From IMG/VR virus record IMGVR_UViG_3300011008_000007: a stretch of 64,000 nt of DNA, one strand, 5' to 3'. This stretch comes from a virus. Taxonomy: Duplodnaviria; Heunggongvirae; Uroviricota; Caudoviricetes. How positions within the stretch are numbered: position 1 is the first letter of the stretch; every line of letters begins with the position of its first letter. Under the pieces are notes generated by a model, which was given only the letters and a program-made list of their open reading frames with translations, did not search any database and was not told the DNA's origin. Of the stretch, positions 25,702-54,789 are shown piece after piece. The translations under genes were made by a program, and so were the position numbers.

Positions 25702-27272
25702 AACCGATAGTTCCTACGCTTTTAATTGATTTTTATAAAGGTGTTCACGCTGAAATGCTCCCTAAAAAGATTGAAAAATCCGTTTCTTATTTTACTCCGA
25801 GAATGAGCAGGGTAAAACGTTGGAAATATGTAGTTTTCTTTGGTTTACAGGGATTTATCAAAGAGTATCTTAGAGATTATTTTAATGAGCATTTCTTTAT
25901 AAGAGGTACCAATGAGGTTGTAAATGAGTATAAAAGAGTAATGGACAATACTCTTGGCGAGGGTATCTATGGAATTGAAAAAATTGAGAAACTGCATAAG
26001 CTCGGCTATTTGCCAATTGAAGTAGTTGCACTTCCCGAAGGCACAAGAGTTCCTATGCACGTTCCTATGTTTGGAATAACTAATACACATCCTGACTTTG
26101 CTTGGCTTCCGCAGGCTCTTGAAAGTTTAATTTCAGCAGAGGTTTGGCATCCTATGGTCGCGGCTACGGTTGGAGATACATATCGCCAAATTGTAAACAA
26201 GTATTATAAAGAAACTTGCGACGACAACATTTCGAGAGCGCGAGCTTTGGGTAGTTTTGACTTCCGTGGAGATGAAGGACTTGAAAACGCAACAAAAACA
26301 GGCGCAGCTTGGTTGTTGTCTTTCTTGAATACGGCTACTGTACCGGCAATTCCATACCTTGAAGAATACTATAATTGTGATTGTACAAAAGAGCCTGTTG
26401 GTTTTGGTTCTCCATCTACTGAGCATTCTGTTATGTGTAGCAACTATGCCGTAGACGGTGATGAGACTACTTTGCTTCGCAGATTATTGACCGAAATTTA
26501 CCCAAATACTTCTTTCTCGGCAGTTCTTGATAGTTACGACTACTGGAACGTAATTGACAATATTCTTCCTCAGTTAAAACCTGAGATTATGTCACATAAC
26601 GGCTGTATGCTTATGCGCGGTGATAGCGGAGATTGCGTTGATGTTGTAACCAAAACAGTATTCAAGCTATGGGATATTTTTGGTGGCACAACGAACAGTA
26701 AGGGATATAAAGTTCTCGACCCGCACGTTAAAGCTATTTATGGAGATAGCATTACTGTTCAGCGCTGCGAGCAGGTTTATCAAATTTTAAAAGATAACGG
26801 ATTTGCCGCGTCAAACGTGGCGCTTGGAGTTGGTTCTTTCTCAATGCAATGTATTGAAGAGGAAGAGGAAATCGGAGTTTTAATTCCTGGCGGAACAGAG
26901 ATATACAGACAGGGCAACACCGTTTCTACAATTGAGGGAGATACAAAATTCATTTGTACAATGCCTATTTTAAAGCCATTCACAAGAGACACATTTTCTA
27001 TGGCTATTAAAGCAACATATTGTGAAGTTGATGGTAAGCCCGTTCCCATTTTCAAAAATCCAAAAGACGGCGGATTTAAGAAATCTCAAAAAGGCTGTTG
27101 TGTTGTAGAAGAGGATGCATTTGGCGGTTTACAATATAAAGATAATTACACTTGGGAAGAGGCACAGAATAACAAAAATCAACTTCTCAAAACAGTTTTT
27201 ATAGACGGAACAATGGAAAAAGAACATTCTCTTTCGGAGATTAGAAATAGACTTCACAAAGGTGATTTTTAA
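25698..27272 (+). CDS. NAMPT-family phosphoribosyltransferase (NadV/Namat-like)
   Basis: Several blocks co-linear with nicotinamide phosphoribosyltransferase: FYKGVHAEMLP, VVFFGLQGFIKEYL, LPIEVVALPEGTRVP, FDFRGDEG, IYGDSIT. Confidence 0.7.
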   Translation: MKPIVPTLLIDFYKGVHAEMLPKKIEKSVSYFTPRMSRVKRWKYVVFFGLQGFIKEYLRDYFNEHFFIRGTNEVVNEYKRVMDNTLGEGIYGIEKIEKLHKLGYLPIEVVALPEGTRVPMHVPMFGITNTHPDFAWLPQALESLISAEVWHPMVAATVGDTYRQIVNKYYKETCDDNISRARALGSFDFRGDEGLENATKTGAAWLLSFLNTATVPAIPYLEEYYNCDCTKEPVGFGSPSTEHSVMCSNYAVDGDETTLLRRLLTEIYPNTSFSAVLDSYDYWNVIDNILPQLKPEIMSHNGCMLMRGDSGDCVDVVTKTVFKLWDIFGGTTNSKGYKVLDPHVKAIYGDSITVQRCEQVYQILKDNGFAASNVALGVGSFSMQCIEEEEEIGVLIPGGTEIYRQGNTVSTIEGDTKFICTMPILKPFTRDTFSMAIKATYCEVDGKPVPIFKNPKDGGFKKSQKGCCVVEEDAFGGLQYKDNYTWEEAQNNKNQLLKTVFIDGTMEKEHSLSEIRNRLHKGDF

Positions 27273-27742
27273 TGATTAGGATTGTTGATGGCGATTTATT
27301 AGAAAGTAAAGCTAACATTATTGCACATCAAGTTAATTGTCAAGGAGTAATGGGTTCGGGTGTGGCAAAAGCCATAAAAAAGAATTATCCGTATGCTTTT
27401 AAATGTTATAAAGAATACATAAAAGAAAATTCTCCCGAATTGGTATTTGGATTTTGTCAGCTTGTACCCATTTATCTTCCGTCTGGAAAACCAAAATATA
27501 TAGCAAATTTATTTGGACAGTTTGATTATGGATATAACGGAGATTGCTACACAAACATAGACAAGCTCCGCACGGCTTTTCTTGCATTAAATGAATTTGC
27601 AGAAGAAGAAAACCTAACCGTTGCTATGCCATATAAAATTGGCTGTGTTCGTGGCGGCGCAAACTGGAACGAGGTTTTAAAAATGATTTGCAATATTTTT
27701 CAAAACGTTTACGTCGAAATTAGGCGTTTAGATAGAGGTTAA
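27272..27742 (+). CDS. macro domain protein (ADP-ribose binding/hydrolase)
   Basis: IIAHQVNCQGVMGSGVAKAI matches the Macro-domain Gly-rich ADP-ribose pocket motif. Confidence 0.55.
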   Translation: MIRIVDGDLLESKANIIAHQVNCQGVMGSGVAKAIKKNYPYAFKCYKEYIKENSPELVFGFCQLVPIYLPSGKPKYIANLFGQFDYGYNGDCYTNIDKLRTAFLALNEFAEEENLTVAMPYKIGCVRGGANWNEVLKMICNIFQNVYVEIRRLDRG

Positions 27743-27744
27743 TT

Positions 27745-28503
27745 ATGTATGATATGATTACGAAAATAAAAGAAGATTGCGTTAAATGGATTAGCTCGTG
27801 GTTTAATAAGAATGGTTGGCAATGTAATGCAATCGTTGGTATTTCTGGTGGAATTGATTCAAGTGTAGTTGCCGCTCTTTGTGTAGAAGCTCTCGGCAAA
27901 GAACGTGTTATTGGTGTATTGATGCCGAATGGAGTTCAGCCAGATATTGATTATGCTTATAAGCTCATCAATCATTTAGGAATCGAGAGTATAGAAATCA
28001 ACATTAAAGATTCCGTAGATAATATCATAAAACAGATAGACAATGCTTCGGAGCAGACATTGATTAATTTGCCGGCACGAATTAGAATGTCAACATTATA
28101 TGCGGTTTCTCAAAGTAATAACGGCAGGGTAGCAAACACTTGTAATTTATCAGAAGATTATATTGGTTACTCAACAAGATATGGAGATAGTGTTGGTGAT
28201 TTTAGCCCATTGGCTCACTTTACTAAATCGGAAGTATTGTTGATTGCAGATAAATTGGGATTGCCTAAAGAACTAATTGAAAAGGTGCCGACAGATGGAT
28301 TGAGCGGCAAAACCGATGAAGAGAATTTTGGATTTACATACGAACAATTGGATAAGGAGATTAGAGGTTGTTATAATTATCCAAAGACCAATTTAGAGAG
28401 AGAAATCACAAATAAGATTGATGAACTACACAAGAAAAATGAGTTTAAATTAAAGCCTATGGATTGTTATGATTTCCACGGATTTAAACATTATACAAGC
28501 TAA
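27745..28503 (+). CDS. nadE: NH3-dependent NAD+ synthetase
   Basis: PP-loop GISGGIDSSVV and overall NadE-like length and order. Confidence 0.7.
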   Translation: MYDMITKIKEDCVKWISSWFNKNGWQCNAIVGISGGIDSSVVAALCVEALGKERVIGVLMPNGVQPDIDYAYKLINHLGIESIEINIKDSVDNIIKQIDNASEQTLINLPARIRMSTLYAVSQSNNGRVANTCNLSEDYIGYSTRYGDSVGDFSPLAHFTKSEVLLIADKLGLPKELIEKVPTDGLSGKTDEENFGFTYEQLDKEIRGCYNYPKTNLEREITNKIDELHKKNEFKLKPMDCYDFHGFKHYTS

Positions 28504-30913: not shown

Positions 30914-30938
30914 TTTTATAAACCTATCAAAAAAACTA

Positions 30939-30967
30939 TTGACAAATTGATAAAAGTATGCTATAAT
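30939..30967 (+). promoter_or_regulatory. promoter with A-rich block + TTGACA-N17-TGcTATAAT
   Basis: Hexamers 30939-30944 and 30962-30967; followed by a 250 nt structured leader before the flotillin gene. Confidence 0.55.
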
Positions 30968-31214
30968 ACATACTGTAATCAAGAGAGTAACAAATTGAGT
31001 GGTGAGTAAAAAGCCTTTTGACAAATGGAGAAATTTTATTAGAATAAGTTAATTCCTCTCCCTTGAAAGGAGAAAATTTCGGTTAAAGCCCGAAATAAGA
31101 TTTTAAAGTTTGGATAAAGAAAAAGATAACGTCGCGCGAGTTATCTCCTATAGGTGTAAGTCCTATGGCTCAATTTTACATAGATAAACTAAAGATTAAG
31201 GAGTTTATTTTACT

Positions 31215-32804
31215 ATGTTTGAAAACATTTTACCGTATTTGACAATCGGGGGCGTTGTTCTGGCTATTGTTCTTGCAATAATTATTTTCCTTTGCAAGAT
31301 TTACAAGGTAGCGGACATCGACAAAGCTCTCATTATTACGGGTGGTAAGGAACCCATTATTAAGGTTTCCGGCGGCAGTTTCGTAGTTCCGATTTTCCGC
31401 AAGGCACAGTATTTCGACTTGTGTATGCTAACGGTAACGGCGGATGAAGACGAAGTAAAAACCAGTACGTCAGTTCCTATCATTATTGATTGGACAGCTC
31501 AAATTAGACCTGATATTCACAACTTAGAGAATCTAAGAAAAGCAATTATCTCGTTTAAAGAGAGAGGTCAAGATGGAATCATTAATGACGTTGGTTTAAC
31601 TCTTACTGGCGTAGTTCGTGACATTGTTGCTTCAATGACACCAGAGGAAGTCCAGAGAGATAAAGTCACTTTTGCCGAGAACGTAAGAAATAACGTTGCG
31701 GACGAAATGATTAATATGGGTATGGAAATCGTTTCTCTTAATATCCAAGACATTAGCGATAACAATGGTTATTATGACAATATTGCTCGTCTTGATATGG
31801 AAGATAAACGTCGAGAGGCTGAAAATAAGATTGCTGCTGTTGACCAGTCGGTTCGCACACAGAAAGCCGAATCCGAAAAGATTGCCTCTCAGAATGAGCT
31901 CGACTCAGAGCTTGCCGTAGCCGAAAAGCAGAGAGATAATAATATCAAAATTGCGGGATTTAAGGCAGAAACCGATAAAGCTAATGCCGATGCTTCAATT
32001 GCCGGCGAATTGCAGAAAACCAAAAGGCAGCAGGAGATTGCTAAGGAACGTGGTCAAGTACAAGTAGTTGAACAGGAACAGGCAAATCTTGCGGCGCAAA
32101 AGGAAAAAGAAGTAATTGCGACAAGAGCAGCGGCAGAAAAGCAGAAGAAAGAAATCGACGCAGAGGCAGAATCTAATGTAAATAAGATTTCCGCTGACGC
32201 AAGAGTTTCGGTTGCCGAAAAGGACGCTAACGCGGTTAAGATTACCGCAGACGCTAATGCCGAGAAAATCCGCAAAGAAGGTATGGCTGAGGCAGACATT
32301 ATTAAGGCTAAAGGTCTTTCTGAGGTCGAGATTGCCAAATCAAAAGGTATGGCAGAAGCCGAAGTTGAAAAGCAGAAACTTATGGCGCAAGCTGAAGGTG
32401 AAAGAGCACTTGCTGAGGCTCGTGCGGCAAATGAGAAAGTCAACTTTGAGATTGAAAAACTCAAAATTGAGAATGATGCTAAGATTACCATTGCAACCAA
32501 GACGGCTGAGATTATGGCTAATATCGGTCAGAATGCTGAGTTCGTTAATATTGGCGGAAATGGCGGAGCAGGTAGCACAGGAAATGTGCTTATCGACACT
32601 CTCAATGCGGTGCCAGGTCTTATGAGGTCGCTTAATGCACAAAATGAGGCATTAAATGGTCGCTCAATTAACGAAGAGCTCAATAATTTGGTTTCAAGCG
32701 TTGCCGCACCAATCAAGGGTTTGCTTTCAACCTCAGAAACAACCAATATCAATACGAGTGAAGAATCAAAACTTCCGAGTAGCGATGCGGTTGAAGAGGA
32801 CTAA
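31215..32804 (+). CDS. flotillin-like SPFH/band-7 protein
   Basis: N-terminal TM, SPFH-like core, then a long Ala/Glu/Lys-rich coiled coil (KAEAEAEVEKQK...) as in bacterial flotillins (YqiK/FloA). Confidence 0.6.
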   Translation: MFENILPYLTIGGVVLAIVLAIIIFLCKIYKVADIDKALIITGGKEPIIKVSGGSFVVPIFRKAQYFDLCMLTVTADEDEVKTSTSVPIIIDWTAQIRPDIHNLENLRKAIISFKERGQDGIINDVGLTLTGVVRDIVASMTPEEVQRDKVTFAENVRNNVADEMINMGMEIVSLNIQDISDNNGYYDNIARLDMEDKRREAENKIAAVDQSVRTQKAESEKIASQNELDSELAVAEKQRDNNIKIAGFKAETDKANADASIAGELQKTKRQQEIAKERGQVQVVEQEQANLAAQKEKEVIATRAAAEKQKKEIDAEAESNVNKISADARVSVAEKDANAVKITADANAEKIRKEGMAEADIIKAKGLSEVEIAKSKGMAEAEVEKQKLMAQAEGERALAEARAANEKVNFEIEKLKIENDAKITIATKTAEIMANIGQNAEFVNIGGNGGAGSTGNVLIDTLNAVPGLMRSLNAQNEALNGRSINEELNNLVSSVAAPIKGLLSTSETTNINTSEESKLPSSDAVEED

Positions 32805-33261: not shown

Positions 33262-33729
33262 GGGGCAGTTCTGGTATTCGACAGGCTGTTGAAAGAATAA
33301 ACTTCGCAGGTAAGCTACAACCTTAATGTGCAAACTTAAAAATAAACGACAAAACTGTTGTAACACTTCATCCTGCTCTTGTAGCAACACTCTCACAGAG
33401 GGCTGCCGCATAAGCAAATTTGGATGCCAAAACAATACTCCTGCTATTCGGTAAGTATTTGAGGTTTAGGATAGAGTAGCAAAATGGTTTCTTGCTTCCA
33501 CAAAAAGTAAGTGGTGGATTTGGTTTGACGAAACTTGTCATCCCCATTCGGAATATCACGAGACCGTCACCGAATTAAAATATAAGGAGTATTATTATGG
33601 AATGCGATTAATTTAATAAAACTATGAGAACGGTAGAGGCTCGGACGGCAAAAAGAATACCTATTGCGTAAAAAGAGTTTATTTAAGTATGTAGTTTGGA
33701 CACGAGTTCGATTCTCGTCTGCTCCACCA
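33262..33729 (+). ncRNA. ssrA: tmRNA (SsrA)
   Basis: 5' GGGGCAGTTCTGGTATTCGACAGG (tmRNA consensus GGGGCUGAUUCUGGAUUCGACGGG). 3' GGACACGAGTTCGATTCTCGTCTGCTCCACCA (T-arm + acceptor pairing with the 5' end + CCA). Candidate tag ORF 33330-33413 ending ...QRAAA-stop; length 468 nt is long. Confidence 0.6.
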
Positions 33730-33912: not shown

Positions 33913-34683
33913 ATGATTTACATCACGGGTGACTGTCACGCAAAATTCGATAGATTTTCAACTAAAAGATTTCCCGAACAAAAGGAAATGACCAAAGATG
34001 ATTATGTTATCATTTGCGGCGATTTTGGCGGAGTATGGAATCATTCTGTATCAACCTCGGAAGAAAAGTATTGGCTTGATTGGCTCAATGACAAACCTTT
34101 CACAACATTATTTGTTGACGGTAATCACGAGAATTTTGACCGACTGAAAGATTTTCCTCGCAAAAATTGGAACGGAGGAATGGTACACGAAATTAGACCA
34201 AGTGTTCTCCATCTAATGAGAGGTTATGTGTTCGATTTAGGGGGAAAGAAATTCTTTACCTTTGGTGGAGCTAAAAGTCACGATATTCAAGATGGTATTT
34301 TAGACCTAAAAGATTATAAAAGCCTTTCTGATTTGGTTAAAGATTATAATCTTCGCACATTTCATTTAAGACAAATGTTGAGAATAAACCATTATTCTTG
34401 GTGGAAAGATGAACTTCCGACAACCGCCGAAATGGAACGAGGAATTAAAAATTTAAACAAAGTTGATTTTAAGGTCGATTATGTGATTTCACATTGCCCA
34501 CCAAGAGAAGTAAATGCTTGGCGAGGATATTATGACCAAGACAGATTAACAAAGTATTTTGATAAACTGCTCGAAATAGGATTAAGCTTCAAAGAATGGT
34601 GGTCAGGACACATTCATTGTAATGAATACGGAGTGTTCAGTAAATATAATGTTATCTATGAAGATATTAAGAGGTTAGTTTAA
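33913..34683 (+). CDS. calcineurin-like metallophosphoesterase
   Basis: Motifs ITGDCH, ICGDFGG, DGNHEN of the metallophosphatase fold. Confidence 0.6.
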   Translation: MIYITGDCHAKFDRFSTKRFPEQKEMTKDDYVIICGDFGGVWNHSVSTSEEKYWLDWLNDKPFTTLFVDGNHENFDRLKDFPRKNWNGGMVHEIRPSVLHLMRGYVFDLGGKKFFTFGGAKSHDIQDGILDLKDYKSLSDLVKDYNLRTFHLRQMLRINHYSWWKDELPTTAEMERGIKNLNKVDFKVDYVISHCPPREVNAWRGYYDQDRLTKYFDKLLEIGLSFKEWWSGHIHCNEYGVFSKYNVIYEDIKRLV

Positions 34684-35084: not shown

Positions 35085-35516
35085 GAAGTTTAAGATTAAA
35101 TACAGTCCACAAGAACTAACATATCCTTATTCTATGGTTCTTACTCACGACTGGCGCCTGCGCTGGTAAGTTAAGGTTCTTATTGCCGAAGTACAAGGTG
35201 GCTGTTGCCTAAACAGATATGTAAATTTGGGGTCGAACTGCCCTTAGCCAAAATAGTTTTTCGCCAACTGAATGAAGTTGTTGGGGTTTTGCATATGACC
35301 AAATACATATGTGAGGTTTGTATTCTCGGATATACAGGTTAAACATTCAACCACAAAATGTTCGGCGTTTGGTTCGTATCGTCGAGAGGAATATAATGAA
35401 CAAGGTGAGATTCAAACCTTTTAAATATGTGCTTTTCGAGTTGGCTACGAAGTTGCTACATATAGGAATTAGGATAGCAACCTACTTTGGCGGCGGTCAA
35501 GATAACAGCTATATAT

Positions 35517-35594: not shown

Positions 35595-35663
35595 GTCCGT
35601 ATAGTTTAAGGAACAAAACACCGCAAGATTGCGGAAACGTGGGCTCGGTACCCACTATGGGCA
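35595..35663 (+). pseudogene. degenerate tRNA-like element
   Basis: 7 bp acceptor-like pairing GTCCGTA/TATGGGC, D-like GTTT/AAAC, T-like stem GTGGG/CCCAC with non-canonical loop CTCGGTA, no canonical anticodon loop. Confidence 0.25.
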
Positions 35664-36401: not shown

Positions 36402-36590
36402 TTAAAGCACTAACAGCAAAATTATATAATAATTTAGGGTACAATTAATTATTTAAAGTGCTTTGAAAAGACGCGCACAGCAGTTAAATACATAATAATT
36501 TTGTTTTTGTTTTCTCATATGTTATTTACTCCTTTTAAAATATAGTGTTGATTGTAAGCGTCTTGACAAAAAAAGAAAGGATTTTGTATT

Positions 36591-38165
36591 ATGTCATTTT
36601 TTAACGAACTTAGAAAGAACATTGATGAGATTAATAATCTCCAAAAGACCGAAAACGGAGCAGTAGGTTATAAAACTACTGGCAAGAAGTTGTTGGATAT
36701 GAACTTCTCGATTCCCAAGTACAGAAAGGCAAATGAGGCTGAAATTATAGCCGATTTTGAACAGTCATTTAACGAGAACGAGATTCTTGCTATTCTTTGG
36801 ATGTTTTTCGCAAGAGATGTTCGTGGCGGACTTGGCGAAAGAAGATTATTCCGCATTTTATTCAACTGGTTTTGCAAAGAGCACACCAAGTATGCAAAAG
36901 AGTTGCTTGAATGTGTAGCAGAATATGGTCGCTGGGACGACCTTGTTAAAGCTACGGACAACACTCCTGTATGGGATGATGCGGTAGTGCTTATCAAAAA
37001 GCAGCTCACAGAAGACTTATTGAATTTTGAGGCTTCTAAAAGTATCTCACTTTTGGCTAAGTGGCTTCCGAGTGAAAGGACTTCAAGTCAGAAAACGAGA
37101 ATCCTTGCCCGCAAGTTAGCAAAGGCGCTTTCAATCAACATTGCTGATTATAACCGCATTTGTGTTAAGCTGCGCAAGTATCTTGATGTAACTGAAATCA
37201 AGATGAGCGCAAAAGAGTGGGAGAATATCAATTATTCTACGGTTCCTTCGGGCGCAAATGTAAAGTACAACAATGCTTTTCTGCGCAATGACGAAGAAAG
37301 ACGCAGAGCATATTTGGAGTCTTTGAAAAAGGGCGAAACTAAAATCAATGCTTCTGCTTTGTTCCCACACGACATTGTACATAAGTATAGCAAAAATTCT
37401 TATTGGCACGGTTCAGTAGGCTCATATGACGAAGCTCTTGAACAGTTGTGGAAGGCTCTTCCCGATATGGGCGGACTCGAAAACACGATTGTTGTTGCCG
37501 ACGGCTCTGGTTCAATGACTTGTAGAGTTGACCCAAATAGTACAACTTCTGCGCTTGAAGTAGCCAATGGTTTAGCTTTGTATTGTGCTGAACATTGCAA
37601 GGGAGAATTTAAGGATAAATATATCACATTCTCATCCAGACCTCAGTTTGTAGATTTGAGCAACAAAATCTCACTACACGACAAATTGGCTGAGGCTTAC
37701 AGACACGACGAGTGTTCAAATACCGACATCCAGGCTGTATTTGACCTTATACTCCATACTGCAACTTCAACCAATGCCAAACAAGAGGATATTCCTAAGA
37801 CTATTCTTATTGTTTCCGATATGGAGTTCGATGCCGCAACAAGTACAGGCGGTTGGTATGGTTCATCATCTTCTCTCACTCCGTCACTTTTTAAAGTAAT
37901 TGACAGAAAATATAAGGAAGCAGGTTATCAGTTGCCGCGCCTTGTATTTTGGAATGTAAACTCTCGCACAGGCACAATTCCAATGAAAGAGAATGACCTT
38001 GGAGTAACTTTGGTTAGTGGCTTCTCAATTTCGATTGTGCAGATGGTGCAGAACGGCGAAACCGACCCATACCTCAATCTTGTCAAGGTTCTTATGGGAG
38101 ATAGATATATGCCCATTTGTGCAAAATTACTCGGAAATACATTTAATAAGGAGAACTACAAATGA
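36591..38165 (+). CDS. vWA-domain protein, Ro60/TROVE-like (Rsr-like) candidate
   Basis: MIDAS motif VVADGSGSMT about 300 aa in; C-terminal blocks (IVSDMEFDAA...LPRLVFWNVNSRTGT...LGVTLVSGFS) co-linear with the Ro60 vWA region; about 520 aa like Ro60. Confidence 0.45.
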   Translation: MSFFNELRKNIDEINNLQKTENGAVGYKTTGKKLLDMNFSIPKYRKANEAEIIADFEQSFNENEILAILWMFFARDVRGGLGERRLFRILFNWFCKEHTKYAKELLECVAEYGRWDDLVKATDNTPVWDDAVVLIKKQLTEDLLNFEASKSISLLAKWLPSERTSSQKTRILARKLAKALSINIADYNRICVKLRKYLDVTEIKMSAKEWENINYSTVPSGANVKYNNAFLRNDEERRRAYLESLKKGETKINASALFPHDIVHKYSKNSYWHGSVGSYDEALEQLWKALPDMGGLENTIVVADGSGSMTCRVDPNSTTSALEVANGLALYCAEHCKGEFKDKYITFSSRPQFVDLSNKISLHDKLAEAYRHDECSNTDIQAVFDLILHTATSTNAKQEDIPKTILIVSDMEFDAATSTGGWYGSSSSLTPSLFKVIDRKYKEAGYQLPRLVFWNVNSRTGTIPMKENDLGVTLVSGFSISIVQMVQNGETDPYLNLVKVLMGDRYMPICAKLLGNTFNKENYK

Positions 38166-38995
38166 GTAAGAATTACAGCGAATTTGACAAACGAATGAAA
38201 AAATATGAGTTTGTCACAAGAACACATTTGATGACACGAACTCCTGCTATTATTAGAATTGACGGAAAGGCTTTCCATACGTTTACAAAGGGATTTAAAA
38301 AGCCTTTCGACGAAGTTCTGCAAAACAGTATGCAGGAAACAATGAAGTATTTATGTGAGAATATCCAGGGATGTGTTCTTGGATATGCGCAGTCTGATGA
38401 AATCACTTTGGTTTTGACAGATTATAAGACTCTCGAAACTTCGGCTTGGTTCGATTATAACATTCAAAAGTGCGCAAGTGTTGCGGCAAGTATGGCGACT
38501 ATGGCATTTAACAGAGCATTCCGCAAGAATGTTTTTGACTGGATGGAAGCTAATAACCCCGAAGATAAGTCTAATAATGAAGAAACTATAGCATACCATA
38601 ATCAGTTCGGTTCATATAACGCAGCATTTAATAGGGGAGCTCTATTTGATGCAAGGGTATTCAATATTCCCAAAGAAGAAGTTTGTAACAACATTCTTTG
38701 GCGCCAACAAGATGCTATCAGAAATTCTATCCAAATGGTAGGACGTTCATTCTATTCCGACAAAGAGCTTTTCGAGAAATCCACAAAGGATATTCAGGAA
38801 ATGTTATCTACGGACAAGAAAATAAATTGGGCTGAGGATTATCCTATTAGATTTCAGCGTGGTAGTTGCTGCATTAAGAAGTATGATGAGAATACCGGTC
38901 ATAATGAGTGGGTAATTGATAATGAAATCCCTATTTTCAAAGAAGAGGGAAGAGCATATATTGATAATCTTGTATTTTGCGGCGAAAATTTATAA
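38162..38995 (+). CDS. Thg1-like protein (tRNA-His guanylyltransferase family / 3'-5' polymerase)
   Basis: IIRIDGKAFHTFTKGFKKPFDE ... VLGYAQSDEITLVL matches Thg1 catalytic blocks (RxDGxxFHxF, xKPxDxR, YGQSDEYSF). Confidence 0.65.
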   Translation: MSKNYSEFDKRMKKYEFVTRTHLMTRTPAIIRIDGKAFHTFTKGFKKPFDEVLQNSMQETMKYLCENIQGCVLGYAQSDEITLVLTDYKTLETSAWFDYNIQKCASVAASMATMAFNRAFRKNVFDWMEANNPEDKSNNEETIAYHNQFGSYNAAFNRGALFDARVFNIPKEEVCNNILWRQQDAIRNSIQMVGRSFYSDKELFEKSTKDIQEMLSTDKKINWAEDYPIRFQRGSCCIKKYDENTGHNEWVIDNEIPIFKEEGRAYIDNLVFCGENL

Positions 38996-39036
38996 ATAAA
39001 ACTTGCATTTTATTTATAAAACTATCTAAAAAATTA

Positions 39037-39065
39037 TTGACAAATCAATAAAAATATGCTATAAT
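39037..39065 (+). promoter_or_regulatory. promoter TTGACA-N17-TGcTATAAT
   Basis: Hexamers 39037-39042 and 39060-39065. Confidence 0.55.
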
Positions 39066-39157
39066 ACAGTTGTAATGAGGGCGAGGGTAAGTTTAACAAC
39101 TCAAACTCCCTCGCCTTTATTGGAAATAATAAACCTATCAATAAAATTAGAGGAAAT

Positions 39158-39429: not shown

Positions 39430-39627
39430 AAATATAAGACACATACAGCAATCAATACATAAATTTGGCTCAAACTTTTAATTTGAATACCTTTTTATAG
39501 TGTCTTGGAGTATAAATTCCTTTCATTTTATAAATAAGGCGCACACAGCGATTTTACAATGGATTAATAAAAGCTCTTGAAAAGTTTTTTAGAGGGTTCA
39601 AGTCCCTCAACCGCGTCTTGAAATATG

Positions 39628-39894: not shown

Positions 39895-40569
39895 ATGACC
39901 TGATGGCGCGTCAGGACGGTTTGGGATTAGCCCATCACAGCCGATACCGTAAAAACAGAAGACCTCTCAATAATAAAAGTATTAACTGGATTATTGAAGT
40001 CGCCCACCTGTTCCAAAGTCGGTGTTTAAAATAGATAGTCAATGTTGCGAATATAGACGGGGCAATTTTCATATAAGCAAGATGAACTCAATAGAGAACC
40101 CATCGGCAAAGTCCTCGTTAGCCACCTCCGCGGGCACTGCTTCTATGGCTGATGGTGCCTATTGACTTCCATATAAACGAGAAGAACGCAACTCTCTGTT
40201 CGGGTCGAAATGATATATACCCGTTCGGTGCTGATACCTATCAGACGGTTATATGGCGTTACACTCCTACCAATACGATAAATTGGGGAAACACAATAGG
40301 GAGAAGAATAATGAAAGCACATTACAACAAGCAATTTTCAAACTATGGACGATTGATTGTGCATTCGGTGTGGTTGCATTTATCATAGGGCACAAATTGC
40401 GACAATTAAATAATTAGTTGGAAGAAAAGGGCGAAAAAGACATAAGCTATGACTTCCCGATAATCTTCAAGGTGTGGACGTGGTGTTGGCTATGCAAACC
40501 AACTGATAGTGTTTAGGCATAGAGTAGAAATTATCTCTTCCAGCTAATTGTTTTGATTGTTTTAGATAT

Positions 40570-40655
40570 GCGGGTGTGATGGAATTGGCAGACATAAGGG
40601 ACTTAAAATCCCTTGGGTTTATCCCGTATCAGTTCGAGTCTGATTACCCGCACCA
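40570..40655 (+). tRNA. tRNA-Leu(TAA), type II
   Basis: Acceptor GCGGGTG/TACCCGC, anticodon arm AGGGA-CTTAAAA-TCCCT, variable hairpin, T-arm ATCAGTTCGAGTCTGAT, CCA. Confidence 0.65.
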
Positions 40656-40743
40656 AAGCAAGAATATTATAATAAAGTTTATACCCTTTGCGGGTCTTAT
40701 AAAAAAGTTTTAATTCTTGCACAGACACAGACAGCAAACCTTA

Positions 40744-40813
40744 AACGAATTAGTCAAACGGTAAGACACACCTCGAAACGGTGCAATTGTGGGTTCAACT
40801 CCCATATTCGCAA
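40744..40813 (+). pseudogene. degenerate tRNA-Phe-like element (anticodon loop TCGAAAC, C33)
   Basis: T-arm GTGGGTTCAACTCCCAT and anticodon GAA-like loop, but only 5 bp of acceptor pairing and C at position 33. Confidence 0.3.
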
Positions 40814-40839
40814 AGCGTGTCTGGAAACAATTGAATATG

Positions 40840-40967
40840 AGGGGTATAGCTCAATTGGTAGAGCGCTGTAATTTTTCAGTATCTTGCAAAAGATACATAC
40901 AGCAAACCATTACATAAAATAATGCTTAGGGAGCCAGATGTTACAGGTTCGAGTCCTGTTGCCCCTC
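40840..40967 (+). ncRNA. atypical tRNA-like gene 1 (128 nt; Ala-like 5' half; internal Cys-like TTGCAAA hairpin)
   Basis: Canonical acceptor AGGGGTA/TGCCCCT, D-arm AGCTCAATTGGTAGAGC and T-arm ACAGGTTCGAGTCCTGT, but about 77 nt between them. Contains hairpin GTATCTTGCAAAAGATAC + ACAGCAAACC. Confidence 0.45.
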
Positions 40968-40975
40968 GCAAATAT

Positions 40976-41097
40976 GCCGGTGTAGCCCAATGGTAGAGCA
41001 GCGGACGCATAATGTGTCTTGATTTAGAAAACACTTGCAGCAATTAAGCGGTCAAGAAAACCGTGTGTTGGAGGTTCGATTCCTCTCCGCCGGCACC
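40976..41097 (+). ncRNA. atypical tRNA-like gene 2 (122 nt; Thr-like ends)
   Basis: Acceptor GCCGGTG/CGCCGGC-A-CCA, D-arm TAGCCCAATGGTAGAGC, T-arm GGAGGTTCGATTCCTCT. Central insert with outer helix CGCATAAT/ATTAAGCG, hairpin GTGTCTTGATTTAGAAAACAC + GCAGCAATT. Confidence 0.45.
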
Positions 41098-41100
41098 AAA

Positions 41101-41220
41101 TGGGAGCGTAGCTCAGTTGGTAGAGTAATAGTAATGAAAAGTTGTCTTGTAAAGACAATAACAGCAATCTATTAAGTTCCAAACTATGTGTCGCAAGTTC
41201 GATTCTTGTCGCTCCCTCCA
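41101..41220 (+). ncRNA. atypical tRNA-like gene 3 (120 nt). Equals tRNA-Gly(TCC) if a 43 nt insert between positions 31/32 is removed
   Basis: Acceptor GGGAGCG/CGCTCCC-T-CCA. With the insert AATGAAAAG-TTGTCTTGTAAAGACAA-TAACAGCAAT-CTATTAA excised, anticodon arm ATAGT-GTTCCAA-ACTAT. The insert itself holds a Tyr-like hairpin TTGTC-TTGTAAA-GACAA. Confidence 0.5.
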
Positions 41221-41223
41221 TAT

Positions 41224-41363
41224 GGGGATGTAGCTCAGTCGGTTAGAGCAGCGTTAAAATTTATTAAGTGTCTTGTTTGTAAAGATACACCCAGCAATCT
41301 TATTTTAATGAAGAAAATAGCTTGTTAAGCCGCAGGTCGTAGGTTCGAGCCCTACCATCCCCA
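41224..41363 (+). ncRNA. atypical tRNA-like gene 4 (140 nt). Resembles tRNA-Asn(GTT) with a 66 nt insert 5' of the anticodon loop
   Basis: Acceptor GGGGATG/CATCCCC. 3' half ...TTGTTAA-GCCGC-AGGTC-GTAGGTTCGAGCCCTAC is Asn-like. Insert has outer helix TTAAAAT/ATTTTAA, hairpin GTGTCTTG...AAAGATACAC + CCAGCAATC. No CCA encoded. Confidence 0.45.
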
Positions 41364-41376
41364 CTCTCCTTTATTA

Positions 41377-41461
41377 GGGCGGGTCGCATAGTGGCAATTG
41401 CGGTGGGCTGTAAACCCACTTCGGTAACGATTCGTAGGTTCGAGTCCTACTCCGCCCACCA
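41377..41461 (+). tRNA. tRNA-Tyr(GTA), type II
   Basis: Acceptor GGGCGGG/TCCGCCC, anticodon arm GTGGG-CTGTAAA-CCCAC, variable arm, T-arm GTAGGTTCGAGTCCTAC, CCA. Confidence 0.65.
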
Positions 41462-41545
41462 AACCCTTTTGTGGCAATCTAAGTCAATATCATAAGATGT
41501 GAGTCCATAATAAATTATTCCTTGCTTTGGGTACAAGGAAAACAT

Positions 41546-41619
41546 ACAGGGTATGGTGTAATGGTAACACACTACATTTGGGATGTAGGGTCGCGGTTCA
41601 AATCCGATACCTTGTGCCA
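41546..41619 (+). tRNA. tRNA-Pro(TGG) (weak T-stem)
   Basis: Acceptor ACAGGGT/ACCTTGT-G-CCA, anticodon arm CTACA-TTTGGGA-TGTAG; T-stem has only 3 clean pairs. Confidence 0.45.
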
Positions 41620-41738
41620 GTCTGTGAAAGCAGACCAAAGGTACTGACATATTCACCTATCAAGTGGTGGGGCAAAACCCTACTACGAAAGAAGTTGGGG
41701 GAACTTCTATAAAAAACCCCGTCCAATCCTATTTATAT

Positions 41739-41825
41739 GGGAGCGTGGTGGAACTGGCAGACACGCGGGACTCAAACTCCCGCGCCGTTCGCGGCGTATG
41801 GGTTCAAATCCCATCGCTCCCACCA
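41739..41825 (+). tRNA. tRNA-Leu(CAA), type II
   Basis: Acceptor GGGAGCG/CGCTCCC-A-CCA, anticodon arm CGGGA-CTCAAAC-TCCCG, variable hairpin GCCGTTCGCGGC, T-arm ATGGGTTCAAATCCCAT. Confidence 0.7.
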
Positions 41826-41851
41826 AATCAAAATAATAAGGAGATAAAATT

Positions 41852-42553
41852 ATGCCTACAAGAAATGAGAACTTAGAAAAGATTCTTAAAAATCCTACAA
41901 GGGAAACAATAACTGTGTACGATGGAAAAGTGGAATATCCAATCGGTGAAATGTGCGTTGCGGATTCATTGCCGATTCTTCCTGTGGATGAACTTAGTCC
42001 TAAACCTATTGTGGCAAAAGAAACCAAAGATAAACTGGGTCGCAAACAAAAGATTACCAAGGGCTTTTTTTATGGGGATTGGTGTAACATTGTCCTTGAA
42101 ACATATTATCAAGGTTGTTTGTTCAATATATATTCGCTGATACCCGAAATTACTGATGTTTCTGTCAAAAATAAGAGCGCGATTATTGTTTCGTTTGGAG
42201 ATGGCACGAAAGAAAAGGCAATTTTACATAAAGATGATACATTCTCGCTTGAACAGGGTATTTCAATTTGCATTTCTAAGAAACTTCTTTCCGAGATGAC
42301 AGAGGGCAGAGGAAATTCTGCATACAACAAACTTGTTCGATATGGTTTAAAGAGGTACAAAGAGTGCGAGAAAAATAAGTCGGAGCAAAAGAAGAAAAAA
42401 GAGGAAGCCAAAAAGCAAAAGGCTCTTCGTGAAGAAAAACGAAAGAAGAAGAATGAAAAGAAAAAAGAGCGAGAGATAAACATTCGTAAGGAAGCATATC
42501 TTCGTGCAATGCGCGAAATGGAGAATAGCAAAAGCCCTGAGCGCGAATCATAA
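41852..42553 (+). CDS. hypothetical protein with Lys/Glu-rich low-complexity C-terminus
   Basis: ORF with AAGGAG SD; KKKKEEAKKQK... tail. Confidence 0.5.
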   Translation: MPTRNENLEKILKNPTRETITVYDGKVEYPIGEMCVADSLPILPVDELSPKPIVAKETKDKLGRKQKITKGFFYGDWCNIVLETYYQGCLFNIYSLIPEITDVSVKNKSAIIVSFGDGTKEKAILHKDDTFSLEQGISICISKKLLSEMTEGRGNSAYNKLVRYGLKRYKECEKNKSEQKKKKEEAKKQKALREEKRKKKNEKKKEREINIRKEAYLRAMREMENSKSPERES

Positions 42554-43040: not shown

Positions 43041-43334
43041 ATGAACATAGATATATTTTTAACGGTGCGCGCCTTGTGTGGTGTGGCAATTATGATTAAT
43101 CTTGCTTTGTATTTTTTGTTTAGACATAAAGAGTATTCAGCTTTGATTTATTCGGTAGTTTTAGGCGGCATTTTTACCATAGATTTTATTGCAGCGCTTA
43201 ATGAAGGTACAGTTTGGCGCCCTCTAATATTTGGCATAGGTTTGATAGCAATAATCTTTTTAATTGCCGCAGATATAAATTTTTATTTATCTGATGATGA
43301 ATATGAAGAACTGGAGCAGAACGATACGGAATGA
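43041..43334 (+). CDS. small membrane protein
   Basis: Two hydrophobic segments; ATG 43041 preferred over track start 43029. Confidence 0.4.
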
Positions 43335-43876
43335 ATATAACAAAAATCAGTCGCTATTTAAGTATGATACTAAGACATAAGCCAGAAGAAATTGGAATTA
43401 CACTCGATGAACACGGATGGGCAAACACCAAAGATATTCTTGCTGGATTAAAAATTGATATGCCGACACTACAACATATTGTAAAAACCGATAATAAACA
43501 ACGTTATTCATTTAACAAAGATGAGAGTAAAATTCGGGCAAATCAAGGACATTCTATTCCTGTTGACGTTGAACTCGAAGAAGTAATGCCACCAGCCGTT
43601 TTATATCACGGAACCGGTAAGAAATATGTAGATTCTATTGATAAGCAAGGATTAATACCAAAATCTCGCCTATATGTTCATTTGTCTTTGGATAAAGAAA
43701 CTGCATATGAAGTGGGTAAGAGGCACGGTTCTCCTTATATTTATAAGGTTGATTCGGAAGCTATGCACAAAGATGGATATAAATTCTTCCTGTCTGTAAA
43801 TGGTGTTTATTTAACTAAAGAAGTTCCTACAAAGTATTTGAGTTTGGATTACAGTATGTTTTCAAGAGGTATTTAA
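43331..43876 (+). CDS. RNA 2'-phosphotransferase Tpt1/KptA family
   Basis: [28 protein letters not shown] ... [28 protein letters not shown] matches the KptA/Tpt1 signature (LRH, HGT, VHLS). Confidence 0.65.
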
Positions 43877-52451: not shown

Positions 52452-52784
52452 ATGATTAATATTATTAAGATTTACAATTGCTTATCGGGCGAAATGGTTG
52501 AACAGGGTTATATCGAAGACGATATTAGTGTGATATTTAATCCCGAAGATTATTATGATTTATGTAATTGGAGCTGTTATTCCAATAATAAACCTCATAA
52601 TTTGCACTCTAATATTGAGTATTGCAATCACGGAGTATGTTTTTACAATCCGGCGACTGACAAATATTATTTGGCATTAACAAAAGGATGGTTAATTGGT
52701 TCTGAGCATAGAATTAAAACCTACATTAAGAAGAATAAAGATAAGATGTGTTGGTGGAACGAAAATGATAGAGTTGTATGTTGA
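52452..52784 (+). CDS. hypothetical protein
   Basis: ORF with SD. Confidence 0.4.
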   Translation: MINIIKIYNCLSGEMVEQGYIEDDISVIFNPEDYYDLCNWSCYSNNKPHNLHSNIEYCNHGVCFYNPATDKYYLALTKGWLIGSEHRIKTYIKKNKDKMCWWNENDRVVC

Positions 52785-54789
52785 ACAGATAAAAGATTTA
52801 ATTGAGCGCCTAAATAAATATAGAGATGCTTATTATAATGATAATCAATCTTTAATTTCCGATATGGAGTATGATAGTTTATACGACCAGCTTGTTGAAA
52901 TGGAAAATAAATATGGAGTGATTATGTCAAATTCTCCAACCCAAACAGTAGGCTATGATGTTGTTAGCGAGCTCAAAAAAGTAAAGCATAACCATCCTTT
53001 ATTGTCATTGGCTAAAACAACTGAGATTACCAAATTTGTTGATTATTTCCGCAATCAAGGAAATATGCTTCTTATGGCAAAGTTGGATGGTCTTACTTGC
53101 TCTTTATATTACAACAATGGTGAACTCGTGCGCGCTGAAACCCGTGGCAATGGCGAAATCGGAGAAGATATTACTCATAATGCAAAAATGTTTTCTAATA
53201 TTCCGTTACACATTGATTATAAAGATGAGTTAATTGTTGATGGTGAGTGTATTATCACAACAGATGAGTTCGATAGAATCAATGAGAGAGAAAATACACA
53301 ATACAAGAATCCGCGCAATTTAGTTAGCGGTACTGTTAGGCAGCTCGATAATAAGGTGGTAAAAAATCGTAATGTTCAATTCCTTGCTTGGAAGCTATAT
53401 TCAATGGGTGAGGATAAGAAAATAGATTCGCATTATCGCAGATTGTTTGCCCTAAGCAACCTTGGATTCGATATTGTTCCTTGTGATTATTTTGATACAA
53501 AGGTAAACCCAATCAATAATGAGAGCTGTCAATTGGGAATTGAAATAATTAAAGAGAAGTGCAAAGTTCTGAATACGCCTATTGATGGTATTGTTGGAAT
53601 GTTCGATTCTAAATCTTATGGCGATTATCTCGGCAAAACTGGACACCATCCTCGACACTCTCTTGCATATAAGTTTTACCAAGAAGAGAACGAAACCACA
53701 TTGACCGATATTGAGTGGTCAACGAGCCGAACAGGTTCAGTCAATCCTGTGGCAATTTTTGAACCAGTTGAAATTGACGGAACCACAGTTTCGAGAGCCA
53801 CACTTAACAATGTGAGTTGCATAAAAGAACTCGAATTGGGTATTGGAGATACAATTACTGTAATAAAGTCTAATCAGATTATTCCTATGGTCACACAGAA
53901 TTTAACCAGAAGCAACACATATAAGATACCCTCGGTTTGCCCTTGTTGTGGCGAGCCTACTGTTATCAAAAATGATAACGGACGAGAAATGCTTTATTGT
54001 GTCAATAAAGATTGTGCAGCAATTTTACACGATAGAATTGCGAATTTTGCGGCAAGAAACGGAATGAATATAGTTGGTATTTCTGAGGAACGCTTAAAAA
54101 TATTGATTGACAATGGTTATATAAAATGTTTTAAAGACTTGTACCATCTTTATGAACATAAAGACGAAATAGTAGGTCTTGACGGTTTTGGTAAAAGTAG
54201 TGTTGATAACATTTTAAAAGCCGTTGAGGAAAGTCGTAAATGCACATTAACCAACATTTTGGTTGCAATAGGAATACCCAATATCGGTAAATCTACAGCA
54301 AAAACTATTTCCGAGCATTGCGAAAAGAAATATATAGAAGATTCGGATATTTACAAGAATCCATTTGATTATTTTTTGAGCTGTATTGAGTATCGGCAGA
54401 ATTGGAGCAGTTTGCCAGCAATTGGTAAATTGACAAGTGAAGTAATAAACAATTACGTTGAAGAAAATATTTTTGATATATATGACCTTCTATACGAATT
54501 AGAGGTTGAATTGGAGTTTGTTGATTCGGATTCCAAGCAAAAGCCTTTTGCTGACAAGTTGTTCTGTATCACAGGTAAACTCAATTACTTTACAAATAGA
54601 AATGCTTTGATTGAAGAAATTGAAAAATTGGGTGGCAAAGCTACTTCGTCGGTTACTTCTAAAACAGATTATTTAATAACAAATGATAAAGATAGTGGTT
54701 CAAGTAAAAATAAAAAAGCGCAGCAATATGGCACAGAAATAATTTCTGAGGATGAATTTATAAAACTATCTAAAAAATTATTGACATAA
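52765..54789 (+). CDS. ligA: NAD+-dependent DNA ligase
   Basis: N-terminal LigA Ia domain (YRDAYYNDNQSLISDMEYDSLYDQL), adenylation KLDG lysine motif, Zn finger CPCCGEP...C, C-terminal BRCT (FCITGKL...YLITND). ATG 52765 in frame of track ORF 52696. Confidence 0.85.
   Translation: MIELYVEQIKDLIERLNKYRDAYYNDNQSLISDMEYDSLYDQLVEMENKYGVIMSNSPTQTVGYDVVSELKKVKHNHPLLSLAKTTEITKFVDYFRNQGNMLLMAKLDGLTCSLYYNNGELVRAETRGNGEIGEDITHNAKMFSNIPLHIDYKDELIVDGECIITTDEFDRINERENTQYKNPRNLVSGTVRQLDNKVVKNRNVQFLAWKLYSMGEDKKIDSHYRRLFALSNLGFDIVPCDYFDTKVNPINNESCQLGIEIIKEKCKVLNTPIDGIVGMFDSKSYGDYLGKTGHHPRHSLAYKFYQEENETTLTDIEWSTSRTGSVNPVAIFEPVEIDGTTVSRATLNNVSCIKELELGIGDTITVIKSNQIIPMVTQNLTRSNTYKIPSVCPCCGEPTVIKNDNGREMLYCVNKDCAAILHDRIANFAARNGMNIVGISEERLKILIDNGYIKCFKDLYHLYEHKDEIVGLDGFGKSSVDNILKAVEESRKCTLTNILVAIGIPNIGKSTAKTISEHCEKKYIEDSDIYKNPFDYFLSCIEYRQNWSSLPAIGKLTSEVINNYVEENIFDIYDLLYELEVELEFVDSDSKQKPFADKLFCITGKLNYFTNRNALIEEIEKLGGKATSSVTSKTDYLITNDKDSGSSKNKKAQQYGTEIISEDEFIKLSKKLLT

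Follow-up and report, generated by a model that had tools for sequence, protein, structure and literature searches.

Ro60 proteins and Y RNAs are conserved from bacteria to humans, and the genes described here bear on the purpose and origin of the tRNA-like domains of Y RNAs. Y RNAs are encoded next to the Ro60 gene and form a stem from the RNA ends, which carries a short motif (GGUCCGA, GNCGAA or CGAA) mainly on its 5′ strand (PMC4201824; 10.1101/312249). In the bacterial Y RNA YrlA, a Ro60-binding stem of which only the 5′ strand is conserved is combined with a tRNA-like domain (PMC4201824; 10.1101/312249), and the YrlA of Mycobacterium smegmatis is cut by RNase P and receives CCA (PMC4201824). 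The Ro60 protein of Thermus phage phiLo binds two phage RNAs encoded beside its gene, Yrl1 and Yrl2, each of which has a 5′-3′ stem and a bulge holding a CGAA motif (PMC12135203; PDB 9KOP). Here, we analysed a stretch of 64,000 nucleotides (the window) from the virus record IMGVR_UViG_3300011008_000007 (Caudoviricetes), a phage-like genome with every gene on the + strand and a tRNA array at about 31–41.8 kb which includes a transfer-messenger RNA (tmRNA). At positions 40840–41363, this array contains four tandem tRNA-type genes, E1 to E4, with normal acceptor, D and T arms, each of which carries an insert of 43–66 nt in the anticodon arm. The inserts share an RNA module, a hairpin followed by the motif CNGCAA, which also occurs in small RNAs around a Ro60-like gene of the same phage. 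We give about an even chance to the interpretation that the insert serves the phage Ro60 homologue as a docking site of the Y-RNA type and that E1–E4 are tRNA/Y-RNA chimeras in their primary working form. While phage Ro60 homologues and Y-like RNAs were already known, we found no report in the papers searched of the CNGCAA motif family or of Y-type modules embedded in tRNA genes.

None of the four genes was called by ARAGORN in default mode, which skipped 40840–41363. Using the Rfam tRNA model RF00005 (gathering score 29 bits), E1, E2 and E3 scored above the gathering score and were aligned with large gaps in the anticodon arm. E4 stayed below this threshold and was called as tRNA-Asn(gtt) with a 66-nt intron by the intron mode of ARAGORN, which also called E1, as well as E3 as tRNA-Gly(tcc) with a 43-nt intron. 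These searches, which had been proposed in the initial annotation of the sequence, bear out its description of four interrupted tRNA-like genes with otherwise normal arms. E1 has discriminator base C73 and no encoded CCA, E2 has A73 and E3 has U73, both with an encoded CCA, and E4, the sole Asn tRNA found in the window, has A73. Hand analysis of E2 revealed an additional base that separates the T stem from the acceptor stem. Within the inserts, a hairpin of 7–8 bp (H) is followed 2–3 nt downstream by CAGCAA in all four cases, again as initially noticed, and the minimum-free-energy folds of E1, E3 and E4 retain the acceptor stem, the T arm and the insert hairpin (z-scores −2.3 to −3.3). As encoded, E1–E4 lack a contiguous 5-bp anticodon stem with a 7-nt loop (U33, R37), whereas deleting the 43–66 nt yields a contiguous canonical anticodon arm for E1, E3 and E4, and never for E2. 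E1–E4 are real tRNA-type genes with an extra arm in the anticodon stem, and the analysis supports the initial view that such an arrangement is unusual for a bacterial virus.

To locate the inserts, all joins of the 5′ piece to the 3′ piece were enumerated for each element. With a cut after position 29, E1 gives the arm CTGGC-TTAGGGA-GCCAG of a tRNA-Pro(AGG), and E4 gives the perfect arm GCGGC-TTGTTAA-GCCGC of a tRNA-Asn(GUU). In both genes, the insert lies within the 5′ strand of the anticodon stem, and the 3′ piece opens with a mini-hairpin (GC, 7-nt loop, GC) enclosing the whole anticodon loop. For E3, a break at 31/32 or 32/33 restores Gly(UCC). The predicted exon-exon junctions are GGTAGAGCGCTG joined to GCTTAGGGAGCCAG for E1, GAGTAATAGT joined to GTTCCAAACTATG or ATAGTA joined to TTCCAAAC for E3, and GTTAGAGCAGCG joined to GCTTGTTAAGCCGCAGG, also written as GAGCAGCG joined to GCTTGTTAAGCC, for E4. 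E2 yields only GCGGT-CAAGAAA-ACCGT with a loop (CAAGAAA) lacking U33, and the boundaries of its insert are ambiguous because AGCGG is repeated on both sides; E2 is a tRNA-like gene without a canonical anticodon loop. The early assignment of E3 to Gly and of E4 to an Asn-like tRNA was therefore confirmed by ARAGORN and by the join enumeration, while of the two genes that had been described as irreducible to a standard tRNA, E1 turned out to be reducible and E2 did not. We also considered E1 as a tRNA-His, for which G-1 and C73 would fit, but discarded this assignment because the orthologue in the related locus L159 has A-1, T73 and a Pro anticodon. The coordinates of the genes, their inserts and further features are compiled in Table 1.

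Table 1. Features of the RNA array and neighbouring genes in the window (H, insert hairpin; R1, covariance model built for the module).
Feature	Positions	Strand	Remarks
E1	40840–40967	+	Rfam tRNA 46.5 bits, 66 nt skipped
E1 insert, 55 nt	40869–40923	+	H 40879–40896; CAGCAA 40900–40905; R1 27.9 bits
E2	40976–41098	+	Rfam match 40976–41095, 36.8 bits, 56 nt skipped
E2 insert, ~47 nt	41005–41051	+	H 41014–41034; CAGCAA at 41038; R1 24 bits
E3, tRNA-Gly(UCC)	41102–41220	+	Rfam match 41102–41217, 48.3 bits, 50 nt skipped
E3 insert, 43 nt	41133–41175	+	H 41141–41159; CAGCAA at 41162; R1 31.6 bits
E4, tRNA-Asn(GUU)	41224–41363	+	ARAGORN intron mode; canonical arm after insert deletion
E4 insert, 66 nt	41254–41319	+	H 41268–41288; CAGCAA at 41292; R1 29.4 bits
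Cassette A	36404–36464	+	AAAGCAC-TAA-CAGCAA ... GTGCTTT; fully complementary partner 54 nt downstream; starts 3 nt after tRNA-Lys
Cassette B	36468–36565	+	AAGACGC-GCA-CAGCAG ... GCGTCTT; R1 19.1 bits at 36454–36491
Cassette C	39436–39506	+	AAGACAC-ATA-CAGCAA ... GTGTCTT; after tRNA-Leu(tag)
Cassette D	39536–39620	+	AAGGCGC-ACA-CAGCGA ... GCGTCTT; R1 16.8 bits
Cassette E	40723–40822	+	AGACAC-AGA-CAGCAA ... GTGTCT; minimum-free-energy fold pairs both ends
Ro60-like protein gene, 524 aa	36591–38165	+	Pfam DUF2828 + DUF7788; PHROG 850 'RNA-binding protein'
Consensus sigma-70 promoter	39037–39065	+	TTGACA-17-TATAAT; 12/12 matches
Unknown 233-aa protein	41852–42553	+	Lys/Glu-rich tail; directly after array

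The module consists of a 7-bp covarying helix, a 3-nt spacer, the sequence C-N-G-C-A-A and a U-rich tail, with the consensus G-N-N-Y-T-T, a GNNA-like loop, A-A-R-N-N-C, 3 nt, C-(A/T/C)-G-C-(A/T)-A and (T)TTTA(C). The alignment of the inserts, another check suggested at the outset, recovered hairpin H as the sole structure predicted by RNAalifold on 15 diverse arms, with double changes in 6 of its 7 pairs. Paired cells in the hairpin amounted to 94.3%, compared to 65.5% in column shuffles (none of 500 shuffles reached the observed value), and 28 cells with double changes were observed vs. 9.2 expected, while sliding the partner strand by 1–3 columns left only 19–54% of the cells paired. This covariation test is the one to rely on, as an earlier hairpin control was too permissive and was passed by 35% of shuffles. 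The insert hairpin is an RNA helix. A conserved outer helix (P1) was not recovered by RNAalifold on the 15 arms, and exon-intron pairings are present in some members without being general. The hairpin sequence differs in every copy, and the resemblance of the E3 hairpin to a tRNA-Tyr anticodon arm that had been pointed out earlier is therefore coincidental. The covariance model R1, built for the module, scores the four window copies at 24–31.6 bits and recovers copies in a dozen contigs. Beyond tRNA, a weak YrlA and a weak tmRNA match, no known small ribozyme or other Rfam family was found at E ≤ 1 in 40700–41480. An interpretation of the hairpin and CAGCAA as a sigma-70 or phage promoter was rejected because the hexamers are not consistently spaced and the two halves follow each other in the opposite order in the cassette RNAs described below.

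Related loci were fetched via the neighbouring Thg1-like protein (L021, L022), via a 15-nt DNA pattern (L039 to L158) or via the Ro-like protein (L159), and these contigs contain about 20 more phage tRNA genes with the same module in an insert. Deleting the insert resulted in a 5/5 stem with U33 and R37 in 17 of the 23 module-bearing tRNAs, compared to 55 of 4600 shuffled interiors (1.2%); the 17th solution, in L022 6774–6874, is an AT-rich artefact in a gene without a real anticodon loop. The restored anticodons are Asn GTT (4), Thr GGT (4), Lys TTT, Gly TCC, Pro TGG, AGG (2), Ser GCT, and Leu-type TAG and GAG, and the break follows position 28 or 29 in most of the interrupted tRNAs. Asn loops of the type xTGTTAA are shared by three lineages whose stems differ (ACGGC/GCCGT, GCGGC/GCCGC and CGGGG/CCCCG), and Thr loops (CTGGTAA) likewise occur in three lineages with three different stems. 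Orthologues of E4 in L159, L022 and L088 have covarying stems, and the L159 orthologue of E1 shows a compensatory stem change (CAG..CTG vs. CTG..CAG) together with a wobble-only change of the anticodon (TGG vs. AGG). When spliced in silico, the genes can be aligned over their whole length, including the junction, to ordinary phage tRNAs (75–86% identity). Six to seven members (including E2, L022 6774–6874, L158, L053/L152 and L043 8073) have no usable anticodon loop yet a perfect tRNA body and the module, and these cannot be decoding tRNAs. The array of L159 contains the orthologues of E1 and E4 and lacks E2 and E3. In cultured relatives, a BLAST search of 40500–41900 against INPHARED matched ordinary tRNAs only. 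No exact match to an intron-less E4 allele was found in IMG/VR or JGI metagenome contigs, and a search with the intron-bearing E4 junction retrieved one further contig, of the L159 type.

Some further observations were made in these loci. L043 encodes a CMP/dCMP-type (TadA-like) deaminase (− strand, open reading frame (ORF) at ~7437) and a cysteine desulfurase (ORF at ~10), both near interrupted tRNAs; the deaminase is of note because an A34 anticodon (AGG) is present in E1 and in L134. IS605-type TnpB-like ORFs lie near module-bearing tRNA arrays in L053, L097 and L152. A second kind of interrupted phage tRNA was observed in L079 (− strand, 100–221 and 693–842), L133 (11335–11466), L096 (− strand, 3379–3510) and L047 (4353–4506), in which the insert in the anticodon loop resembles a small tRNA, having an acceptor-type stem, a T arm and a 3′ ACCA of its own. 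Its excision by RNase P and 3′-end processing would be possible in principle and would leave halves with 3′-OH and 5′-P ends.

The same module also occurs in a split form, in which the strand AAGRCNC-NNN-CAGCAA comes first (leader) and its complement GNGYCTT follows 43–127 nt downstream (trailer). In this form, it provides the closing stem of dozens of small cassette RNAs, five of which lie in the window (cassettes A–E); these have an end-to-end stem with the motif on its 5′ strand. The two strands covary in the window (AAAGCAC/GTGCTTT, AAGACGC/GCGTCTT, AAGACAC/GTGTCTT, AAGGCGC/GCGTCTT) and likewise in L021, where they occur in GGCTC, GACGC, TACCC and GACAC versions. Among non-hairpin leaders collected with a loose pattern, 84 of 200 had a fully complementary 7-mer downstream, compared to 26 of 200 in an equal upstream control window, and nearly all consensus-like leaders had a downstream partner. 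The enclosed bodies vary: some are short, some are degenerate tRNAs in normal order, as in cassettes D (an ARAGORN 'tRNA-Ser' at 39547–39617) and E (an ARAGORN 'tRNA-Phe' at 40744–40813, Rfam 36.6 bits), and others are permuted units of T-arm, hairpin and D-arm resembling YrlA (L101, L109). The initial annotation had also reported standalone copies of the hairpin and motif. The motif indeed recurs there, but because the module is split at these sites, they score poorly as R1 hairpins (13.6–19.1 bits; 19.1, 16.8 and 14.4) and represent split modules. Further RNAs may be located in the stretches 35090–35510 and 39895–40560 of the array, which are long and contain no convincing ORF, tRNA or Rfam match at the gathering threshold. 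Two odd tRNA-like genes were seen at 35595–35663 and 31032–31103, one called by Rfam (37 bits) and not by ARAGORN, the other a weak ARAGORN 'tRNA-Ser(tga)' and not called by Rfam.

The cassettes surround a gene whose product shows no match in a sequence search against the PDB, and its likeness to Ro60 comes from fold comparison only. An AlphaFold2 model of the protein (pLDDT 83.7, pTM 0.84) was compared with the PDB by Foldseek. The top four matches were chains A and B of Xenopus Ro60 (2i91; E 2.9e-7 and 4.9e-7, TM-score 0.53–0.60 over about 580 columns), the phiLo Ro60 (9kop; E 3.4e-7, TM-score 0.56/0.61), which ranks second, and Rsr of D. radiodurans (2nvo; E 2.7e-5, TM-score 0.42/0.44), and the alignments of the first three cover roughly the full protein length. 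As modelled, the DUF2828/DUF7788 protein has a divergent Ro60 fold (TROVE + vWA); its sequence identity to the phiLo protein is about 16%.

The module is linked to this gene. In the window, modules span from 25–190 nt upstream to 3.2 kb downstream of it, and clustering the ORFs of 24 module loci placed the Ro60-like family in 17 of them. The gene was present in 22 of 120 IMG/VR stretches fetched by the DNA pattern alone and in 12 of 120 stretches fetched in the same way from a genome collection, with the motif within about 60–500 nt of the gene in at least 8 of these 12; in both sets, chance alone would be expected to produce most of the other pattern matches. Homologues of the Ro60-like protein were found in 709 cultured-phage records, some of them annotated as 'Ro-like RNA binding protein', and the link between module and gene persists in cultured phages at 35–38% protein identity. 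In Enterococcus phage VRE9_4, a cassette AAGAATC-TTA-CAGCAA...GATTCTT lies about 40 nt 5′ of the Ro60-like gene inside a tRNA array. In Mycobacterium phage Aegeus (L163), three GC-rich cassettes lie in tandem shortly after the 3′ end of the gene, among them GGGCGC-GAA-CAGCAA...GCGCCC and GGACCC-ATA-CAGCGA...GGGTCC, and Vibrio phage KVP40 has two leaders, which are weaker, leader-only matches. The Rfam model of YrlA gave no match at E ≤ 0.01 near the Ro-like gene in phages Aegeus, VRE9_4 and KVP40.

Taken together, the inserts have the anatomy of the protein-binding stem of Y RNAs, i.e., a helix with a conserved bulged motif on one strand, and belong to an RNA family flanking a Ro60-like gene. 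Because the cassette RNAs match Y-RNA anatomy and E1–E4 hold the same helix and motif in the same polarity, with the motif strand running towards the T arm, we read the insert as a predicted docking module, which in E1–E4 is closed by a loop and built into the anticodon stem of an otherwise complete tRNA. YrlA (RF02553) shares with the window the location beside a Ro60-family gene, the RNA-repair gene context and the modular build of a motif-bearing helix strand towards the T arm and a tRNA-like body (D arm, T arm, acceptor stem). In contrast to YrlA, E1–E4 have true tRNA topology with free acceptor ends and two encoded CCA ends, and their helix is capped and internal instead of being formed by the RNA termini, with a complete anticodon hairpin retained. 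The phiLo system likewise pairs a phage Ro60 with partner RNAs beside its gene that combine a stem and a bulge with a short conserved motif, but these RNAs are free-standing like the cassettes and not embedded in tRNA genes. With the insert in the 5′ strand of the stem, the anticodon hairpin is preserved next to the arm, a placement that fits an RNA displaying both features. The Ro60-like protein would accordingly be expected on the extra arm of E1–E4, leaving the acceptor end (with CCA encoded in E2 and E3), the elbow and, in E1, E3 and E4, an intact anticodon hairpin exposed to tRNA-binding partners. We infer such binding, as well as a ribonucleoprotein as the working form, from these similarities; the modules of E1–E4 point to a ribonucleoprotein role rather than, or on top of, a plain intron.

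The array is surrounded by an RNA-repair island coding for Band-7/flotillin-like, metallophosphoesterase, Thg1-like and Tpt1/KptA proteins (31215–32804, 33913–34683, 38162–38995 and 43331–43876), with Tpt1 identified by Pfam (6.6e-46) and an NCBIfam equivalog (242 bits). The tmRNA belongs to the same island, and the neighbourhood further holds NAD salvage genes and an ADP-ribosylglycohydrolase. Because of this setting, the ribonucleoprotein would be expected to tether, shield or quality-control tRNAs, or enzymes and nucleases acting on tRNAs, and a role in tRNA surveillance, protection or tethering is plausible. The initial proposal of decoys for anticodon nucleases would fit the tether logic of Y RNAs.

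Several points weigh against docking as the purpose of the insert. Its motif is CNGCAA, vs. CGAA or GNCGAA in known Y RNAs, and the best match to the Rfam YrlA model reaches 30.9 bits (41169–41270) vs. a gathering score of 69 bits; the matches to this model straddle neighbours, the best one spanning the 3′ half of E3 and the 5′ half of E4. In known Y RNAs, the Ro60 stem is located at the free 5′ and 3′ ends, whereas it is capped and internal in E1–E4. The proximity of the motif to the Ro60-like gene could partly reflect cis-regulation of its mRNA. Finally, the strong purifying selection on U33, the anticodon and R37, together with E4 being the sole Asn tRNA, is the pattern of decoding tRNAs, which would need the arm to be removed, as it seems unlikely that an arm of 43–66 nt in the anticodon stem is tolerated on the ribosome. 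We put a later removal of the arm at somewhat short of an even chance.

The serious rival is that the inserts are true tRNA introns of a new, protein-dependent kind, with decoding tRNA-Pro, tRNA-Gly and tRNA-Asn as products. We consider this rather unlikely, although it is compatible with the link to Ro60. After excision of the inserts from the anticodon stem or loop, either the RtcB of the host or a repair ligase of the phage would join the halves, whose ends would be cleaned by Tpt1 and the phosphoesterase; the Ro60-like protein could be a splicing cofactor, or the excised intron a mini Y RNA. The canonical arms obtained after deletion in 17 of 23 cases, the conserved anticodon loops with covarying split stems and the identity of the spliced sequences to ordinary phage tRNAs all favour this explanation. 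So do the position of the E3 insert inside the loop itself, where it would disrupt decoding unless removed, the pairing between the end of the 5′ exon and the nucleotides that directly follow CNGCAA (E1, E3, E4, L021, L022), and the presence of Tpt1, metallophosphoesterase and Thg1-like genes in the same island. However, no EndA, RtcB, Rnl or other splicing endonuclease or RNA ligase was found among the approximately 50 window ORFs scanned (64 kb of the 162-kb genome), no bulge-helix-bulge could be drawn by hand for E3, E4, L079 and L088 (by inspection, not a formal scan), and the Rfam search of the region returned no ribozyme or intron. The distances from module to junction vary on both sides, between 8 and 22 nt, which argues against a module-based ruler. 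Tpt1 homologues occur in 20 related phages without tRNAs nearby, and Tpt1 is absent from other module loci. The members without a usable anticodon loop and the cassette RNAs, which are closed by the same module and contain nothing to splice, also speak against introns.

Protein-spliced tRNA introns of archaea and eukarya are known at non-canonical positions, and an archaeal tRNA-Trp intron folds into a box C/D ribonucleoprotein. They resemble the phage inserts in being short, non-self-splicing elements of the anticodon arm whose removal restores a canonical tRNA, and an intron forming a ribonucleoprotein has a precedent there. The phage inserts differ in that they belong to a bacterial virus and that most of them (at 28/29 or 29/30) interrupt the 5′ half of the anticodon stem without breaking up the anticodon hairpin. 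It is conceivable but doubtful that they form a third class of tRNA intron, which neither splices itself nor depends on a bulge-helix-bulge: the Ro60 homologue would recognise the Y-RNA module and direct or gate excision and re-ligation by the RNA-repair enzymes, so that tRNA-Pro, tRNA-Gly and tRNA-Asn were released only under phage control (e.g., beyond host anticodon nucleases), with the excised piece as a mini Y RNA. The initial proposal of small non-group-I introns was correct in that the intervening sequences are genuine, conserved and not of group I; it missed their membership in an RNA family flanking a Ro60-like gene.

A processing or cis-regulatory signal of the array transcript, such as an entry site for a nuclease or an operator through which the Ro60-like mRNA is autoregulated, with a secondary presence inside tRNAs, is an improbable explanation of the motif. 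Leaders often start directly 3′ of a tRNA end and trailers often end just 5′ of the next tRNA, the KVP40 motif lies about 20 nt before the Ro60-like start codon, and the promoter preceding the Ro60-like gene (36563–36592, 11/12 matches) has a −35 box that overlaps with the cassette B trailer. The whole array also appears to be one transcription unit: the consensus promoter upstream of cassette C probably drives the RNA array at 39.1–41.8 kb as one transcript, and no terminator-like site was found on the + strand between 36300 and 42000. Such a signal, however, accounts neither for the constant site of the module within the anticodon stem in more than 20 tRNAs with different identities nor for the covariation of the helix over 43–127 nt around diverse bodies. 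As an aside, two nearly identical consensus sigma-70 promoters are present at 30930–30970 and 39030–39070 (aaaaaa(c/t)taTTGACAaat..atgcTATAATaca).

Even less probable is a mobile hairpin element acting at the DNA level (IS200/IS605-type or resembling miniature inverted-repeat transposable elements) that entered tRNA genes without an RNA function. The strand specificity of the structure, a frequent TTAC after the motif and TnpB-like ORFs in 3 loci speak for such an element, as do the lack of E2 and E3 in the syntenic L159 array and the AGCGG direct repeat flanking E2. However, each insert has one hairpin instead of two subterminal hairpins or ends, its G-U pairs and compensatory changes fit an RNA helix, and several lineages retain interrupted Asn, Thr and Pro genes in which the split stems covary. 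Moreover, the Ro60-like gene accompanies the module in 17 of 24 loci vs. 3 of 24 for TnpB, a far tighter link, and the metagenome searches yielded no intron-less E4 allele. The 'insertion element' suggested initially is therefore a weak reading, given that the hairpin shows the covariation of an RNA helix and that compensatory changes continue in the split anticodon stems.

Group I introns occur in bacterial tRNA anticodon loops, measure 200–300 nt and have a conserved catalytic core; like the phage inserts, they interrupt bacterial-type tRNA genes at the anticodon region and are hidden from default tRNA finders, but the inserts have only 43–66 nt with one hairpin and no Rfam match. The known intron types, group I self-splicing or archaeal-type bulge-helix-bulge, have a negligible probability here, since, although group I introns do occur in bacteria and phages and archaeal introns can sit at 29/30, the inserts are far shorter than the approximately 200 nt or more of a group I P1–P9 core, neither Intron_gpI nor another Rfam intron matched at E ≤ 1 in 40700–41480, a conserved terminal G is missing, a bulge-helix-bulge could not be drawn and no EndA-like gene was seen among the scanned ORFs.

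The remaining neighbourhood also contains recurrent genes. The 233-aa protein encoded directly after the array has no Pfam, PHROG or NCBIfam match and recurs beside module-bearing arrays, being clustered in 6 loci and detected in 8 loci by tblastn. The trio of phosphoesterase, Band-7 and Ro-like genes of the window recurs in phage Aegeus, where the Ro-like gene follows the other two, and Band-7 is present in 7 other module loci. Tpt1 was tried as a guide to related arrays and abandoned, since it led to 20 homologous loci without any tRNAs and is not specifically tied to interrupted tRNAs. The tmRNA lies inside the tRNA array at 33262–33729 (Rfam 76 bits, full length). In the window, we also observed a NAD+ salvage cluster (PRPP synthetase-like, NAMPT, NAD synthase) and an ADP-ribosylglycohydrolase (17763–18560, 24877–28503), a NAD-dependent DNA ligase (52696–54789), and a reverse transcriptase (RVT_1) immediately followed by a radical-SAM/SPASM protein (19894–21998). 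Two ORFs at 54990–55841 and 59310–59939 match different parts of a C-5 cytosine methyltransferase profile and could represent a split or interrupted methylase gene.

Because default tRNA finders miss genes of the E1–E4 type, the tRNA repertoires of phages are under-counted. Bona fide tRNA genes with correct anticodons and encoded CCA that carry a Y-RNA module represent a plausible evolutionary intermediate from tRNA to Y RNA. If the arm is removed, the inserts would be the first short, non-group-I class of tRNA introns in a bacterial virus; if it stays, the phage would possess tRNAs which bring an RNA-quality-control protein to tRNA binders within a tRNA-repair island.

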